From contig DASXPB010000013.1 in NCBI GenBank assembly GCA_036493875.1, positions 4,377 to 68,376 of the forward strand: a stretch of DNA of 64,000 bases, read 5' to 3'. A program made the translations under genes and the position numbers. Within the stretch, counting starts at the first letter, position 1; every line of letters begins with the position of its first letter. The DNA is from Thermoanaerobaculia bacterium. Lineage in GTDB: Bacteria; Acidobacteriota; Thermoanaerobaculia; UBA5066; Gp7-AA6. Below are positions 28,820-61,805 of this stretch, piece by piece. The notes under the pieces were generated by a model that saw only the letters and a list, made by a program, of their open reading frames with translations, was not told where the DNA came from and did not search any database.

Positions 28820-31800
28820 ATGAAGTTCACCGATCTCTTCGTCCGGCGGCCGGTCCTCGCGATCGTCGTCAACCTCGTGATCCTGATCGCCGGTCTGCAG
28901 GCGATCCGGACGCTGTCGGTCCGCCAGTACCCGCGCAGCGACATCTCGGTCGTGACGGTCACGACCGTGTACGTCGGCGCGAACGCGGACCTGGTGCGGG
29001 GCTTCATCACGACGCCTCTCGAGCGCGTCATCGCGAGCGCTGACGGCATCGACTACATCGAGTCCTCCAGCGCTCAGGGCGTCTCGACGATCACGGTCCA
29101 CCTGAAGCTCAACTACGACACCAATGCCGCGCTCACACAGGTCCAGGCCAAGGTCGCGCAGGTCCGCAACGACCTGCCGCCGGAGGCCGAGGCACCGATC
29201 ATCGACCTCGCGACAGCGGACCAGCAGTTCGCGGCGATGTACCTCGGGTTCTCCTCGAAGGAGCTCGACCAGAACCAGATCACCGACTACCTGACCCGCG
29301 TCGTGCAGCCCAAGCTCTCGGCGGTGTCCGGCGTCCAGCGCGCCGACATCCTGGGCAGCCGTACCTTCGCCATGCGCGTTTGGCTCAAGCCCGAGCAGAT
29401 GGCCGCGCTCGGCATCTCTCCGAGCGACGTCCGCAACGCCCTCTCCCAGAACAACTACCTGTCGGCGATCGGTCAGACCAAGGGCACGATGACGTCGATC
29501 AACCTGGTCGCGAACACCGACCTGAAGACGGCGGAGGAATTCCGCCAGCTCGTCGTCAAGCAGAAGGACAGCGTCGTCGTGCGCCTCGGCGAGATCGCCG
29601 ACGTCGAGCTGGGCGCCGAGAACTACGACTCGGACGTGCGGTTCAACGGGCAGGCCGCGACGTTCATGGGCGTCTGGGTGCTCCCCAACGCCAACGCCCT
29701 CGAGGTCATCAAGCGGGTGCGGGCCGAGATTCCCGACATCCGCGCGCAGCTGCCGGCCGGGATGGACGTCGGGATCCCGTACGACTCGACGGCGTACATC
29801 GAGGACGCCATCCACGAGGTCCTGTCGACCCTGACGGAGACGCTCCTCATCGTCATCGTCGTCATCTTCCTCTTCCTCGGCTCCTTCCGCGCGGTCCTCA
29901 TCCCGATCGTCGCGATTCCGGTGTCGCTTATCGGCGCCGTGTTCCTGATGCTGATCGCCGGCTTCACGATCAACCTGCTGACCCTTCTCGCGATCGTGCT
30001 CTCCGTCGGTCTCGTCGTCGACGACGCGATCGTCATGGTCGAGAACGTGGAGCGTCACCTCCAGCTCGGCGAGAAGCCCTTCGAGGCCGCGCTCAAGGCC
30101 GCGCGCGAGCTGGTCGGCCCGATCATCGCTATGACGATCACGCTCGCGGCGGTGTATGCCCCGATCGGCATCCAGGGCGGACTCACCGGCGCGCTCTTCC
30201 GCGAGTTCGCCTTCACCCTGGCCGGCGCCGTCATCGTGTCGGGCATCGTGGCCCTGACACTCTCGCCGATGATGGGCAGCAGGCTCCTGCGCACGGGCGA
30301 CGCCGAGAAGGGCTTCGCGGGCTGGATCAACCGGCGCTTCGAGAAGGTCAAGACGACCTACGCGCGCCTGCTCACCGGAAGTCTCAACTACCGGCCCGTC
30401 GTCTACGTTCTGTGGTTCATCGTCGTGCTGCTGATGTTCCCCTTCTACATGTTCTCCGCGAAGGAGCTCGCGCCGACGGAGGATCAGGCGGTCGTCTTCG
30501 GTGTCATCCAGGCGGCGCCCAACGCGACGATCGACCAGACGAACCTCTTCGCGCAGAAGGTGTACGACGTCTACCACGCGATGCCGGAGCACCAGAGCGT
30601 CTTCCAGATCACGAGCCCGACGGGCGGTTTCGGCGGCATGGTCACGAAGCCTTGGAGCGAGCGGAAGAAGAGCACCCAGAAGCTCCAGGTCGAGGCCTCG
30701 ATGGGTCTATCCAAGATCCCCGGGGTGCGCGTGATCTCGCTCGTGCCTCCGCCGCTGCCGGGCGGCGGCAGCTTCCCGGTCGACTTCGTCATCGCGTCCA
30801 CGGCGGAGCCCCAGAGGCTCGTCGACTTCGCGAACGACCTCGTGGGCAAGGCCTACCAGAGTGGCCTCTTCATGTTCGCCGACTCGGACTTGAAGTACGA
30901 CCAGCCGCAGGCCGAGGTCGTGTTCGACCGCGACAAGCTGCGCGCCCAGGGCGTCGACCTCGGACAGGCCGGCCGCGACCTCTCGACGATGCTCGGCGGC
31001 AACTACGTCAACCGCTTCTCGATCCAGGGGCGCAGCTACAAGGTCATTCCGCAGATCAAGCGCGCCGACCGGCTCACGCCGAGCCAGCTCCAGGACATCT
31101 ACGTGACGGGAGCGGGCGGGAAGCTCGTCCCGCTCTCGACGTTCGCGACCGTCAAGACCTCGACGCAGCCGCGCGACCTCAAGCGCTTCCAGCAGCTAAA
31201 CGCCGTGCGCATCCAGGGCGTCATTCCGCCCGGCGTACCCCTCGACAACGCCCTCAAGGTCCTCGAGACCGAGGCCAAGCGGATCCTGCCGAAGGGCTTC
31301 ACCGTCGACTACGCCGGCGAGTCGCGGCAGCTGCGCACCGAGGGCAGCAAGTTCCTCTTCACGTTCATGCTGTCGGCGATCCTGATCTACCTCGTGCTCG
31401 CGGCGCAGTTCGAGAGCTTCCGCGACCCGTTCATCGTGCTCGCGGGCTCGGTTCCGCTGGCCCTGTCGGGATCGCTGCTGTTCTCGTTCCTCGGCTTCAC
31501 GACGCTCAACATCTACAGCCAGGTCGGACTCATCACGCTCGTCGGCCTGATCGCGAAGAACGGCATCCTGATCGTCGAGTTCGCCAACAAGCTCCAGGAG
31601 CAGGGCCGCGACAAGGTCAAGGCCGTCATCGAGGCCGCCGAGACCCGGCTGCGCCCGATCCTGATGACCACCGCGGCCACCGTCATGGGCCACATGCCGC
31701 TCGTCTTCGCGAGCGGTCCCGGCGCCGGCGCCCGAAACAGCATCGGCACCATGCTGGTCACCGGCATGATCATCGGCACGGCGTTCACCCTCTTCGTCGT

Positions 31801-38292: not shown

Positions 38293-38553
38293 GGTCAGCG
38301 TCTCCTCTTCTCTAAAGGGTTGAGCCGCAAGATCCTTGCCAGCCCGCGAGGCCATCAGGGACCGGCCCGGGCGCCGAAGCTCCGCCGGCGCATGCGAATG
38401 GTGGGCCACGAGATGGCGCGAAGGCGCACCCCGAGCGGGTGAAGGATCGATTCGACGGGTCGACCGGAGGCGACGCGGCGCGAGCTCGCCGGTGCGAAGG
38501 AGCCCGCGAGGGGCGGCCGCTTCGAGGCGGCCACCCCTCCGAGCGAGGGACCC

Positions 38554-60100: not shown

Positions 60101-60246
60101 CGCCCGACGCCGAGGCCGCCCTCGCTCAGCGTCGCGAGGAGACCGCGGCCGGGCTCGCCCACTGGCGAGGCTTTCTGGAAAAGGAACTCCCCGCCGTCAA
60201 CTCCGCGCTTCGCGCGGCCGGGATGCCGGTCCTGGCGAAGAACTGA
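57115..60246 (+). CDS. secreted Sortilin/VPS10-like BNR-repeat protein (glycosyl-hydrolase-like beta-propellers)
   Basis: RR-containing signal (TRWRRTVRGVGAAFLFAAVAAA). Repeated S/TxDGGxTW motifs (STDGGETW, STDGGATW, SADGGDTW, STDGGKTF, TRDGGRSW). GTG 57115 (alternative ATG 57070). Confidence 0.75.
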   Translation: MTRWRRTVRGVGAAFLFAAVAAALPGQAYDSELLSSLRWRMIGPFRGGRVLTAAGVPGEPDRFYFGAVGGGVWRSDNAGRTWRPIFDGQPIASIGAIAVAPSNPSILYVGSGEADMRSDISYGNGMYKSTDGGETWRRIGLEDTRQIGKVVVDPKDPNRVFVAALGHAYGPNAQRGVFRSTDGGATWSRVLFHDENTGAIDFAVDPRDSRTLLAALWQTRRPPWNVYPPSNGPGSGLYRSADGGDTWKPVVGTGLPSEKLGRIRLAFAPSRPGRVFALVDAKQGGLFVSEDGGLAWKRVSGDRRIWERGWYFAGVTVDPKNADVVYACDTAMYRSTDGGKTFLPFKGAPGGDDYHQLWIDSADSRRMILASDQGAAVSVDGGLTWSSWYNQPTAQFYHVATDAQFPYWIYGAQQDTGAAATPVRTDTIAMTQRDWRPIAAGGENGYIAPDPAHPEILFGGGVGRFDATTLQEQDVDPTLAHPGSYRGEWTLPLSFSPRNPSALYFGNQFVFRTTDAGRHWDRISPDLTREAPEVPATLDSVTAEDSAERDPRRGVVYAIAPSFLRDGMIWCGTDDGLLWLTRNDGAHWENVTPPALTAWSKVGVLEPSHFDPEAAYAAIDRHRLDDVDAHILRTRDGGRSWTEIAAGIPSGSYVNVVREDPDRRGLLYAGTETGVFVSFDDGDHWQSLQANLPNCSIRDISVRQGDVVLATHGRAFWVLDDASPLRQLDANVTAAPVWLFAPRKAIRLNPAPFQGTPDPKDEPRAENPPNGAVLDYVLKTASATPVSIEILDAKGGRVRRFSSDDPEEGPDLQKIQTTPDWSPVRRPPSAAAGAHRFVWDLQYETPKALVSRRRREAGSLWAAPGSYTVRLTTGGRTVQQPLVVARDPRISATDADLSRQLELALQIQAERVRVAEALRDADGIRRRVASLPLAADDAVRQALASFSRALEDAAGPPAESEEFFEENEASPTNLRRIAARLARYERTVESADAAPTPDAEAALAQRREETAAGLAHWRGFLEKELPAVNSALRAAGMPVLAKN

Positions 60247-60319
60247 GCCTCGGGACCGGAAAAGCGGGCGGGACCGGGCCGGGTCCCGCCCTTGCGAAGA
60301 GTAAAGAGCGAGGCCCGGC

Positions 60320-60625
60320 TCAGCGACCCGGGGCGGACTTCGCTTGCGCCGTGGCCTCCGGCATCGAGCACTGATACGCGGTTCCCGTACGCGCGCCATC
60401 GGCGGAGATCAGGAGCGTGTTGGCGCCCTTGTTCCGAACCGCCTCGGTGAGGTCGCGCTGGATGTCGTAGTCCGGTGTGAGGTCGTTCGCGTGGACCTCT
60501 CCCTTCGACTGGCACGACGCGACCGTGGCCGCGTTCTTCGTCACGGCCACGGCCTGAAATCCGCTCTGCGCGCACGCTGCCGTCAGCAGCACGAGAGAGG
60601 CTGTGGCCAAAAGTCCCATCGTCAT
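60320..60625 (-). CDS. small lipoprotein
   Basis: RBS. MTMGLLATASLVLLTAACAQ lipobox. Confidence 0.5.
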   Translation of the reverse strand: MTMGLLATASLVLLTAACAQSGFQAVAVTKNAATVASCQSKGEVHANDLTPDYDIQRDLTEAVRNKGANTLLISADGARTGTAYQCSMPEATAQAKSAPGR

Positions 60626-60920
60626 CGATCGTTTCACTTTGTCCCCCTTTGGTTTCGGTTGCGTTCCATTCCCTTCATCCAAGACGAACGCGGAGCGCGA
60701 AGGTTTCGTCTCCGCGCGGTCCAGATTCGCGAAGCGCGCTGGCACAGTCGGTGCAACTCTCGTTCCGGTGATGGCGGGCGCGCGCGTTGCAAGTCGCAAG
60801 CTTTCTCGCGTGTACCGTGGGTGTGATCATCGCCGCGCGGCGGCGACGCGTCGCCGATCGCCGATTTGCGAATCGGGATGCGGCACTCACCATCCGATCG
60901 TGCATCGATGGCAACGATGT

Positions 60921-61025
60921 GACGCGCGACTCGCGATGCGCGATGCGCGGCGCGCGACTCGCGAATCACGACGACGGTGGCGCGACTCCTCGCCGCTCGT
61001 CTCCGCGACTCGCGACTCGCGATGC
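60921..61025. repeat. cluster of five or more copies of the (c)gcgactcgcga motif (contains palindromic TCGCGA) plus a perfect 16-nt palindrome cggcgacgcgtcgccg at 60841-60856
   Basis: Direct inspection: gcgcgactcgcgatgcg, gcgcgactcgcgaatc, ccgcgactcgcgactcgcgatgc. Confidence 0.6.
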
Positions 61026-61134
61026 CGGCCCGTGAAGAGGCCCGGGTTTCGCCTGCACAACTCCGTGTGCAGACTGTCGTCGTGGCTCGCGGATTCCGCG
61101 ACGGAGCGCGCGAACGAGAGCCCTGCCGAAGCCC

Positions 61135-61164
61135 AAAAAAAAGACGCCCTCGGCTTTACGGCGT
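61135..61164 (-). terminator. candidate intrinsic terminator (minus strand): hairpin acgcc/ggcgt followed by U8
   Basis: A8 at 61135-61142 on the plus strand immediately 5' of an inverted repeat at 61144-61164. Confidence 0.35.
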
Positions 61165-61205
61165 GTTATAACGAGATGAAAATTCTGTTCGAGGTGGATC
61201 CGCAG

Positions 61206-61229
61206 AATGTGTCGCTACACATTTTTTTT
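61206..61229 (+). terminator. candidate intrinsic terminator (plus strand): aatgtgt-cgct-acacatt hairpin plus T8
   Basis: Perfect 7-bp inverted repeat followed by tttttttt. Confidence 0.4.
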
Positions 61230-61310
61230 CGAGATCAGGCGGGCGCGATGAAGCGCCCGCTTCTCGTTTCAGAGCCCAACCGGGCCAATACATTCGAACG
61301 GAGGACATGA

Positions 61311-61805
61311 ATGAAGCAGACGCGCTGGATCCGCGAATCGGTGGCGCGCAGGGGGAGGACCCTCGCGCGGATCGCCGGCCTCGTGTTTTATCTCTTTGCG
61401 GCTCAGGCGCTTCTCACCGCGGCGGTCGGGCTCGAGGTCTTCTTCGGGGGCGGCTCCGCCGCGGATCTCCTGCTCCCCGCGGCCTCCGTCGTGCTCGCGG
61501 GATGCTACGCCTTCGTCGGGTTCTTCCTGCGCCGCTACCGCGTCTGGGCCCGCAATTTCGCGTTCGCGTTCTCCGCCGTCATCCTTTTCGCGTTCCCCTA
61601 CGGCACCGCGCTCGGCGCCTTCGTCGTTCTGTGCGTCGTGCTGGCCAACCGGGCCGACGCGTTCGGAACGCGACCGGTCGCCGCAAGACCGGTGGGACCC
61701 GCTTCCGCCAGACCCGCGACGCTCATCCCGCTCGCCGGCGCCGCCGCCGACGGGACTCCGCATCCCGCCTTTGAGCTGGAGTTCGCCTCCGAACACGCGG
61801 GCTGA
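61311..61805 (+). CDS. hypothetical membrane protein (4 TM)
   Basis: ggagg RBS plus ATG. Hydrophobic helices (IAGLVFYLFAAQALLTAAVGL; AASVVLAGCYAFVGFFL; FAFAFSAVILFAFPYGTALGAFVVLCVVLA). Confidence 0.55.
   Translation: MKQTRWIRESVARRGRTLARIAGLVFYLFAAQALLTAAVGLEVFFGGGSAADLLLPAASVVLAGCYAFVGFFLRRYRVWARNFAFAFSAVILFAFPYGTALGAFVVLCVVLANRADAFGTRPVAARPVGPASARPATLIPLAGAAADGTPHPAFELEFASEHAG

Follow-up and report, generated by a model that had tools for sequence, protein, structure and literature searches.

In the pyrBI leader of Escherichia coli, the leader open reading frame (ORF) overlaps the terminator, and a closely following ribosome blocks the hairpin, with no antiterminator being needed. A ribosome stalled on the MsrDL leader peptide likewise obstructs terminator formation, and the related leader peptides MefAL (MTASMRLR, 8 codons) and ErmDL bear an R/K-x-R/K arrest motif (PMC10314930). 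The ilvB-II motif of Corynebacterium, a conserved intergenic motif, was shown to be an attenuator built on an upstream ORF (uORF) (PMC10272879), and rnTrpL of Sinorhizobium is described as an attenuator-derived small RNA with a function in trans (PMC7968998). Here, we present a computational analysis of a 685-bp intergenic gap in a 64,000-nucleotide stretch of DNA (the window, to which all coordinates refer) from an uncultured member of the Thermoanaerobaculia, a lineage of the Acidobacteriota (assembly GCA_036493875.1, contig DASXPB010000013.1). Its right-hand part, at 61135-61310, is probably, judging from sequence comparison, the promoter and terminator-bearing cis-regulatory leader of a membrane-protein operon, and our best reading of how it works, on which we are evenly balanced, is a ribosome-dependent transcription attenuator of the leader-peptide type.

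A preliminary description of the gap had left two possibilities side by side, an independent small RNA and a leader or attenuator for the membrane-protein gene and the FGE-like gene that follows it. The comparison with related loci favours the second, with the block found upstream of the same protein family in about 43 loci whatever stands further upstream, and makes the first less likely than a cis-acting leader, as the element always lies about 40 nt from the ribosome-binding site (RBS) of the same gene. The pairing with the FGE-like gene holds in part, in that the link to the membrane-protein gene is constant and the FGE gene lies upstream instead in two loci. Beyond what had been described, we report a conserved uORF, a sigma-54-like promoter and two conserved inverted repeats.

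Conservation of the block

Block 61135-61310 recurs upstream of all membrane-protein homologues for which sufficient upstream DNA is available (about 43 loci, 45-91% protein identity), namely L002-L005, L007 and those of L008-L052 that reach far enough, and it is kept whether the upstream neighbour is a divergent lipoprotein gene, an SPW gene or an FGE gene. The order within it runs from an A/T tract through a TGnTATAA box, the leader, a GC hairpin with a T-rich tail and a second hairpin to GGAGG and the ATG. Every related locus was collected through the membrane protein, so statements on linkage cover protein-anchored loci. This protein family comprises 39 protein clusters, and the nearest genome-resolved relatives are an Acidobacteriota metagenome-assembled genome (MAG; L002, 75% identity) and a Thermoanaerobaculia MAG (L003, 68%); further loci were taken from assemblies (L004-L007) and, 45 in number, from Joint Genome Institute (JGI) metagenomes (L008-L052). 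Conservation along the gap was read from alignments of the window with L002 and L004, and in its middle part from an alignment of five genomes. These show conservation of 60627-60681, 60682-60711, 60740-60755, an island at 61053-61072 with CGTGAAG, and everything from the A8 run at 61135 through the ATG. Among the features previously singled out, these comparisons retained TTATAAC and the plus-strand hairpins of the leader and lost the repeated motif, the 16-nt palindrome and the minus-strand hairpin.

Three subgroups can be told apart among the leaders. Group A is made up of the window, L002-L004, L008-L012 and L051, and group B of L005, L013, L031 and L038; group C takes in most of the others and has, in addition, two hairpins on the 5' side and a conserved block rich in purines, GAGGGGAGCGCAGACGAGCUUGG. 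A covariance model, R1, was built from the eight closest leaders; it scores 149.5 bits in the window, 151-174 bits in close relatives, 27-56 bits in group B and 13-27 bits in group C, and its matches in groups B and C sit at the exact promoter-to-ATG coordinates. Neither the rest of the window nor 175 kb of related loci gave a further convincing match to the model. Weak matches in the window at 30435-30569 on the plus strand (18.6 bits, E 0.013) and 38508-38539 on the minus strand (15.7 bits, E 0.071) are probably chance similarity to GC hairpins within coding sequence.

Predicted promoter

The promoter comparison covered 38 distinct upstream regions anchored on the -10 box, 36 of which share cgCG-TG[T/C]-TATAA[A/G/C]; the two exceptions to TG[T/C]TATAA are L017, with TGA-TATAAA, and L014, which has just a partial match, GATATAAGG. 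In the window, the predicted extended -10 element is TGtTATAAC on the plus strand (61164-61172). It contains the TTATAAC (61166-61172) already picked out as lying in an AT-rich island, and the island itself is real, with a GC content of 0.48-0.55 across 61100-61299 against 0.70 for the whole window. Further upstream on the same strand, an A8 tract (61135-61142) resembles an UP element, and an A/T tract stands at the equivalent position in most of the 38 aligned promoters; at a distance of 22-30 nt upstream of the TG, the alignment columns have an A/T frequency of 0.8-0.9. Transcription would start near 61179, about 7 nt past the -10 hexamer. For that start A8 spans about -44 to -37, which is where the proximal UP subsite is located.

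A promoter at this place explains both the AT-rich island and the A8 run, so that no minus-strand terminator is needed. The hairpin readable on that strand before a U8 run, which had been taken for one, has a folding energy of -7.3 kcal/mol that is no better than shuffles (z +0.08), and it is unconserved in relatives. A strict consensus scan reported neither promoter nor terminator. It missed both hairpins of the leader because its rules, read by hand, would exclude them: the G-C pairs of one stem are too few, and the other stem runs on into the T tract through G-T and A-T pairs.

Predicted leader RNA and terminator

From the predicted start to the membrane-protein gene, the leader RNA would span about 130 nt on the plus strand (61179-61310), in a block conserved from the window to L002, L003 and L004; the leaders of relatives are 70-130 nt long downstream of the box. 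The minimum free energy of region 61176-61320 is -54.7 kcal/mol (z -3.88 against shuffles). Its dominant element is an intrinsic-terminator-like hairpin at 61230-61269 on the plus strand, with 5' arm CGAGA..GGCGGGCGC, loop GAUGAA, 3' arm GCGCCCGCU..UCUCG and tail TTCTCGTTT, and folding of 61230-61266 gives -26.4 kcal/mol (z -4.9). This stem was found in all 39 leaders tested, with the consensus GGGCGCC/GGCGCCC followed by a T run, and T occupies a family median of 7 out of 10 positions after it. Covariation is seen in the lowermost base pair of the stem (GC in 10 leaders, AU in 9, GU in 3), and the lower helix CGAGA/UCUCG of the window's subgroup shows one C-G to U-A double change, in L010. 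According to RNAalifold, run on 22 group-C leaders, the terminator is the only family-wide consensus helix.

Two smaller hairpins flank it on the same strand. Upstream, AGAAUGUGU/ACACAUUUU at 61204-61225 encloses the start codon of the uORF (-7.0 kcal/mol, z -2.0) and leads into the U8 run at 61222-61229; group A keeps a hairpin at this position with differing inner sequences. Downstream, GCCC-AACC-GGGC at 61274-61285 (-6.9 kcal/mol, z -2.0) lies between the terminator and the RBS, and a second hairpin of this kind occurs in roughly 30 of the 39 leaders by inspection, with unrelated sequences and modest statistical support. The plus-strand hairpin before T8 and the GC hairpin before a T-rich tract that the preliminary description reported are thus both confirmed, at 61204-61229 and 61230-61269.

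A family-wide helix between the 5' part of the leader and the RBS, which RNAalifold on group A and pair counts on an alignment fitted to the covariance model had suggested, was rejected after a duplex test across the family gave a median z of -0.29, with 5 of 39 leaders at p <=0.05. Since this independent test failed, the high pair counts on the model-fitted alignment are partly an artefact of fitting. The window alone gave z -3.87 in the same test, and we keep the helix as a possibility for the window only. No conserved antiterminator was found with RNAalifold or by folding truncated leaders, the latter being not discriminating because the GC-rich arm pairs with something in every sequence.

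Upstream reading frame

Within the leader of the window, a predicted uORF of 14 codons plus UGA, MCRYTFFFEIRRAR, runs on the plus strand from 61207 to 61251, and its UGA (61249-61251) falls in the terminator loop. A Shine-Dalgarno-like GAGGTGG (61191-61197, plus strand) stands 9-10 nt before its start; GAGGTG is invariant in the 8 group-A leaders, and groups B and C have GAGGAG, GGGGAG or AAGGAG at the equivalent place. All 8 group-A leaders keep the AUG, the UGA and the frame, with no indels in the intervening 39 nt, and their six-base terminator loops read GAUGAA, UAUGAA or GAUGAG. The last three sense codons, CGG GCG CGA (Arg-Ala-Arg), are the 5' arm of the terminator, and the UGA is in the loop.

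The arrangement is kept in other forms outside group A. In L005 the uORF has 13 codons from the AUG to a UGA in the loop, and the frame is saved by two offsetting indels of -5 and +2 nt, as traced by hand; in L013, L031 and L038, also of group B, it is an AUG with 6 further codons and UGA. In group C, the homologous position is occupied by a UUG, from which 7 further codons lead to a UGA inside a conserved CGUGA motif. Of the 22 group-C leaders, 17 were retained by the filter as having exactly 8 codons; L017 is an 18th case, its Shine-Dalgarno-like motif falling slightly beyond the range searched. In groups B and C, the first base of the stop is 9-18 nt ahead of the conserved GGGCGC, and this distance is 10-13 nt in all 8-codon cases. 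The loop of the terminator follows the uORF: it is a UGA-containing 6-nt loop if the uORF ends there, and a GNRA-like 4-nt loop with no stop if the uORF ends upstream. Taken over the family, a uORF of 5-14 codons that ends between 20 nt before the terminator and its loop is present in 31 of the 39 distinct leaders against 6.3 expected from dinucleotide shuffles. The peptides contain 20% Arg, and 19 of the 31 have R/K-x-R/K (5.7 expected).

Some frames around the uORF depart from this pattern. An ATG follows the -10 box (61176 in the window) and is in frame with the uORF in 7 of the 8 group-A leaders (L002, L003, L004, L008-L010 and L012), where the frame has 24 codons and reads MKFLSRWF.RMC...; in the window, one extra A puts this ATG into a 44-codon frame with a TGA directly before the main ATG. 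Lying only 3 nt past the -10 hexamer, ATG 61176 is probably not transcribed. In L030 (1352-1503) and L033 (90-241), a 1-nt deletion extends the uORF to 27 codons, through the terminator, so that it ends with UGAUG overlapping the main start, and the 22-codon uORF of L007 also runs through the terminator.

Proposed mechanism

The attenuator that we propose would depend on where the ribosome stands. A share of transcripts would end at the hairpin 61230-61269. When a ribosome is at the end of the uORF, be it translating, pausing or terminating, it would cover the 5' arm of the terminator; the terminator would then stay unfolded and RNA polymerase would read into the membrane gene. With no ribosome at the end of the uORF, the terminator would form and the transcript would end near 61269. 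The ribosome could be missing if the hairpin at 61204-61225 keeps the start codon paired, if translation is poor or if the ribosome lags behind. As to whether the uORF is what controls the leader, the arguments for and against weigh about the same.

Several points weigh against this mechanism. That transcription starts and ends as described and that the uORF is translated are predictions from sequence, and because the sequences are related, the comparisons of counts with shuffles make the independent events look more numerous than they are. The U tract of the window is weak, with 5 T in 10 positions, as it also is in its subgroup, and it partly pairs with the upstream CGAGA; the long-range helix predicted for group A is not a feature of the whole family. 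The start codon of the uORF sits within a hairpin, and its Shine-Dalgarno-to-start spacing is 9-13 nt (further still in L013) against 6 nt for the main gene. In group A, the Arg-Ala-Arg-stop ending is dictated by the GC-rich stem, so that selection as a peptide is not required. By the criteria used, 8 of the 39 leaders have no uORF, although L017 (8 codons) and L013 (7) fail on Shine-Dalgarno distance only, and L030, L033 and L007 carry the longer ORFs that run through the terminator.

The Arg-rich R/K-x-R/K peptides suggest two candidate signals, namely arginyl-tRNA supply and ribosome arrest of the drug or translation-stress type. R-x-R occurs at codons 4-6 in many group-C members, and the window has R-A-R-stop. 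In one specific form, which we consider unlikely, the leader would be a sensor of translation stress or antibiotics, where an R/K-x-R/K nascent peptide stalls the ribosome on or beside the terminator and thereby induces the membrane protein; were this true, a small membrane family of soil Acidobacteriota would be a candidate new resistance or stress determinant. Alternatively, the leader may be an arginine-sensing attenuator for a transporter or exporter of basic amino acids.

Alternative explanations

The same promoter, leader and terminator could be controlled by RNA structure alone, as a riboswitch or as a protein-bound or temperature-sensitive leader, with the small ORF incidental. A promoter, structured leader, terminator and RBS before a membrane protein form the typical layout of a riboswitch, the leader of the window folds far below shuffles, the two extra 5' hairpins of group C are visibly compensatory, and its very conserved purine-rich block is rather distant from the uORF start for a Shine-Dalgarno role. 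The central leader, however, differs strongly among subgroups, and in group A the 5' hairpins are missing along with most of the purine block, which would not be expected of a ligand-binding core; the terminator is the sole helix shared across the family, and inspection revealed no conserved segment complementary to either of its arms. We found no conserved aptamer with an invariant core across groups A, B and C and no match to a described class. Rfam 15 gave no hit at the gathering score in the window and none meaningful at E <=10 in 60500-61500, and it gave nothing usable on the leaders of 20 related loci; over all these searches, the hits were RsmY at 19.8 bits and chance hits of the miRNA type. 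One of the Rfam hits, to mir-23 in a bacterial metagenome contig (L039 1950-2042, plus strand), has 36.5 bits against a gathering score of 52 and is presumably a false positive. What is conserved across subgroups is the arrangement of start, frame and stop, and control by structure alone thus appears rather unlikely to us. It is improbable, in turn, that about 61179-61269 is a small RNA gene of about 90 nt acting mainly in trans, with read-through into the membrane gene secondary. Such a gene would have promoter-like and terminator-like sequence signals of its own, as found here, and attenuator-derived small RNAs with trans roles are known, of which rnTrpL is an example. In all loci examined, though, the element is directly upstream of the same family at its short distance from the RBS, and neither the window nor the 175 kb of related loci hold a second copy; moreover, the space between the terminator and the gene is too small for a separate promoter, and transcription of the gene must therefore pass through the terminator. 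A prematurely terminated product of the leader may still act in trans.

Under a third alternative, the hairpins would be constitutive, consisting of a terminator for transcription that comes from the sigma-54 promoter upstream or, in relatives, from the SPW gene, and of stabilising stem-loops, with no conditional control. This would suit L003 and L005, where the end of a same-strand SPW-repeat gene is found shortly before the A tract, and a conserved sigma-54-type promoter motif in the gap points toward the membrane gene. Yet the TGnTATAA box lies upstream of the terminator, so that the gene's own transcripts must cross it, the terminator is kept in the window, L002 and L004, which have no upstream gene on the same strand, and the conserved geometry of the uORF is left unexplained, which makes constitutive hairpins quite improbable. 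It is very improbable that, in the left half of the gap, copies of CGACTCGCGA are iterated binding sites and a 16-nt perfect palindrome, cggcgacgcgtcgccg, is an operator. The preliminary description, which favoured binding sites, counted at least five motif copies within about 100 bp; there are four exact ones (60927, 60955, 61006 and 61013) and one degenerate copy, gcgactcctcgc, near 60982. Four exact copies within 100 bp against one elsewhere in 64 kb, and a separate cluster of GACTCGCGA and TTCGCGA units in L004, would fit such sites. The overall frequency of the motif is nevertheless not above expectation (7 matches at <=1 mismatch against 15.8 expected in the window); 5 of the 7 matches lie within 100 bp because they are part of a degenerate tandem array of period 7/14/28 (60906-61022, Tandem Repeats Finder), which holds the four exact copies. 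Counts of GACTCGCGA in the equivalent stretch are 4 in the window and 2 in L004, against none in L002, L008, L009 and L010. The palindrome, at 60841-60856 as described, is in an unconserved part of the three-way alignment and at chance frequency (6 perfect 16-nt palindromes in the window, mean 4.5 in dinucleotide shuffles), and is probably due to chance. With only about 20% identical columns at 60770-61005, as also at 60797-60979 within it, a stretch that holds the palindrome and most motif copies, the varying or absent repeats read as slippage products in a fast-evolving CG-rich spacer of about 250 bp that contains the array and the palindrome, and not as binding sites; both motifs and palindrome look like products of chance or replication slippage.

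Other conserved elements in the gap

The sigma-54-type motif, TGGCAC-N5-GTGCA (TGGCACAGTCGGTGCA), lies at 60740-60755 on the plus strand, with GG and GC 10 nt apart as in the consensus TGGCAC-N5-TTGCW, and faces the membrane gene. It is conserved at ten related loci, standing 540-630 nt before the ATG in L002-L005, L008-L011 and L051 and about 570 nt before it in the window, and no more than 3 matches to a relaxed sigma-54 pattern are found in 64 kb when both strands are counted. In L003 and L005 the motif precedes the SPW-repeat membrane gene, in whose place the window has about 370 bp of unconserved spacer; from the motif, we predict a sigma-54-like promoter that would drive the SPW-repeat gene in some relatives. 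The middle of the gap was also considered as a remnant of an SPW gene and rejected (tblastn best E 0.03 over 17 residues).

Nearer to the leader, the palindrome CTGCACA-N6-TGTGCAG (61053-61072; fold z -3.1) lies about 110 nt upstream of the -10 box. It is present in every group-A locus with no SPW gene, 87-133 nt upstream of the -10 box, and is missing from L003, L005 and group C, and a pair of related CTTGCACAAGnATCGTTGCAT units is found in L007. We regard it as a candidate operator or enhancer site. Its core, TGCACA-N6-TGTGCA, resembles the sites of NtrC-type enhancer-binding proteins.

Two further elements adjoin the lipoprotein gene at the left end of the gap. Its predicted 5' untranslated region (UTR; 60627-60681, minus strand) is purine-rich, has several GGA motifs and is near-identical in the window, L002, L003 and L004; together with the first codons, it is almost invariant between genomes whose coding sequences differ. 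A CsrA-sequestering RNA of the RsmY/RsmZ type was not supported here, as the score was 19.8 bits at 60571-60682 on the minus strand against a gathering score of 57. The adjoining inverted repeat, AGACGAA-N16-TTCGTCT (60682-60711), is kept unaltered in the window, L002 and L003, and L004 has it with a single difference, GTTTCGTTT. Folded as RNA, it gives -14.7 kcal/mol with a z of only -1.2, and it is a candidate for either a regulator site or a hairpin of the lipoprotein UTR.

Flanking genes and coding potential

The gap is bounded by the minus-strand ATG of the lipoprotein gene (60626) and the plus-strand ATG of the membrane-protein gene (61311). In the window, gaps have a median length of 54 bp according to a crude gene caller and 25 of the 40 are shorter than 100 bp, which roughly bears out the earlier statement that most gaps fall short of that length; that this one is unique cannot be claimed, because this caller misses genes. 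The sequence of the region is identical to that of a JGI metagenome contig (sample 3300036806).

The membrane-protein gene (61311-61805, plus strand; 61300-61805 with its RBS GGAGG at 61300-61304) is an ORF predicted to encode 164 aa that matched no Pfam or NCBIfam family. Its AlphaFold2 model has four helices, at moderate confidence (mean predicted local distance difference test score 66). An FGE-sulfatase-domain gene follows at the 3' side and starts 35 nt inside the end of the membrane-protein gene (61771-61805, by the gene call in the identical JGI contig), an overlap that suggests a single operon. In L006 and L007 the FGE gene lies upstream of the membrane gene instead, so the constant link is that of leader and membrane gene only.

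On the other side, the predicted lipoprotein gene (60320-60626, minus strand) is an ORF of 101 aa with a signal peptide ending in LTAAC, called likewise in the identical JGI contig; no family could be assigned, a weak DUF4156 match (E 0.096) being all that Pfam yielded. A Sortilin/BNR gene ending at 60246 is convergent with it. Between the two lies a long GC inverted repeat, GCGGGCGGGACC..GGTCCCGCCC, at about 60266-60292, which looks like a bidirectional terminator with no clear T run.

None of the six reading frames of the gap is coding-like or matches a family. Two candidates were rejected as non-coding, a 235-aa ORF spanning the gap (60603-61310) and a 41-aa frame from the ATG at 61185; both have Arg-rich translations and no family, and an indel shifts the frame between relatives. 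No tRNA or transfer-messenger RNA genes were found.

Significance

Gene regulation in Acidobacteriota of the Thermoanaerobaculia type, which are abundant in soil and mostly uncultured, is almost undescribed, and searches of the open-access literature returned no earlier description of the leader element. The leader is a clearly delimited, conserved and unannotated candidate cis-regulatory element for catalogues of RNAs and leader peptides, and the block also offers a promoter architecture for the lineage in the form of a UP-like tract with an extended -10 box. If our reading as an attenuator is right, it illustrates that a conserved intergenic block can be a uORF attenuator instead of a riboswitch. 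The putative regulatory signal is attached to an uncharacterised membrane family and, should the peptides sense drugs or arginine, it would hint at the role of the protein. The most striking features of the gap, the repeats and the palindrome, appear to be the least meaningful ones.

Comparison with described systems

The putative promoter is like extended -10 promoters with UP elements in that TGn stands directly before a TATAAT-like hexamer and that the positions from about -44 to -37 are taken up by an A tract. It differs in its poorly defined -35 region and in belonging to a lineage with an uncharacterised polymerase and sigma factor. Terminator riboswitches share with the leader its position, its size, a terminator followed by an RBS and a membrane protein downstream, as well as extra conserved hairpins in the case of group C. 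They are set apart from it by the aptamer core common to subgroups, the conserved antiterminator and the Rfam match, none of which was identified here.

Among the uORF-dependent systems, ilvB-II resembles the present case in having been discovered as a conserved intergenic motif, whereas its peptides are rich in the amino acids that its operon produces and those described here are Arg-rich in an operon with no known link to arginine. With pyrBI the leader shares an ORF that overlaps the terminator and a U-rich stretch upstream (U8 at 61222-61229 in the window). The ORF of pyrBI, however, is longer and passes the terminator, whereas the uORF stops in the loop (group A) or about 7-10 nt before the stem (groups B and C), a link to pyrimidine metabolism is absent, and U8 is specific to the window, its relatives having UUCUUUC.

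The arrest-peptide attenuators MefAL, MsrDL and ErmDL differ from the present element in the gene regulated, which is here a small uncharacterised membrane protein beside an FGE-like enzyme and no known resistance gene, and in the host, an uncultured Acidobacteriota lineage. The R/K-x-R/K motif of group A, furthermore, coincides with the GC stem and may not be selected as a peptide. The likeness lies in the arrangement of a short leader ORF between a promoter and an intrinsic terminator and, for MefAL and ErmDL, in the R/K-x-R/K motif itself, which is found in 19 of the 31 family peptides and with which, as R-A-R-stop, the peptide predicted for the window ends.

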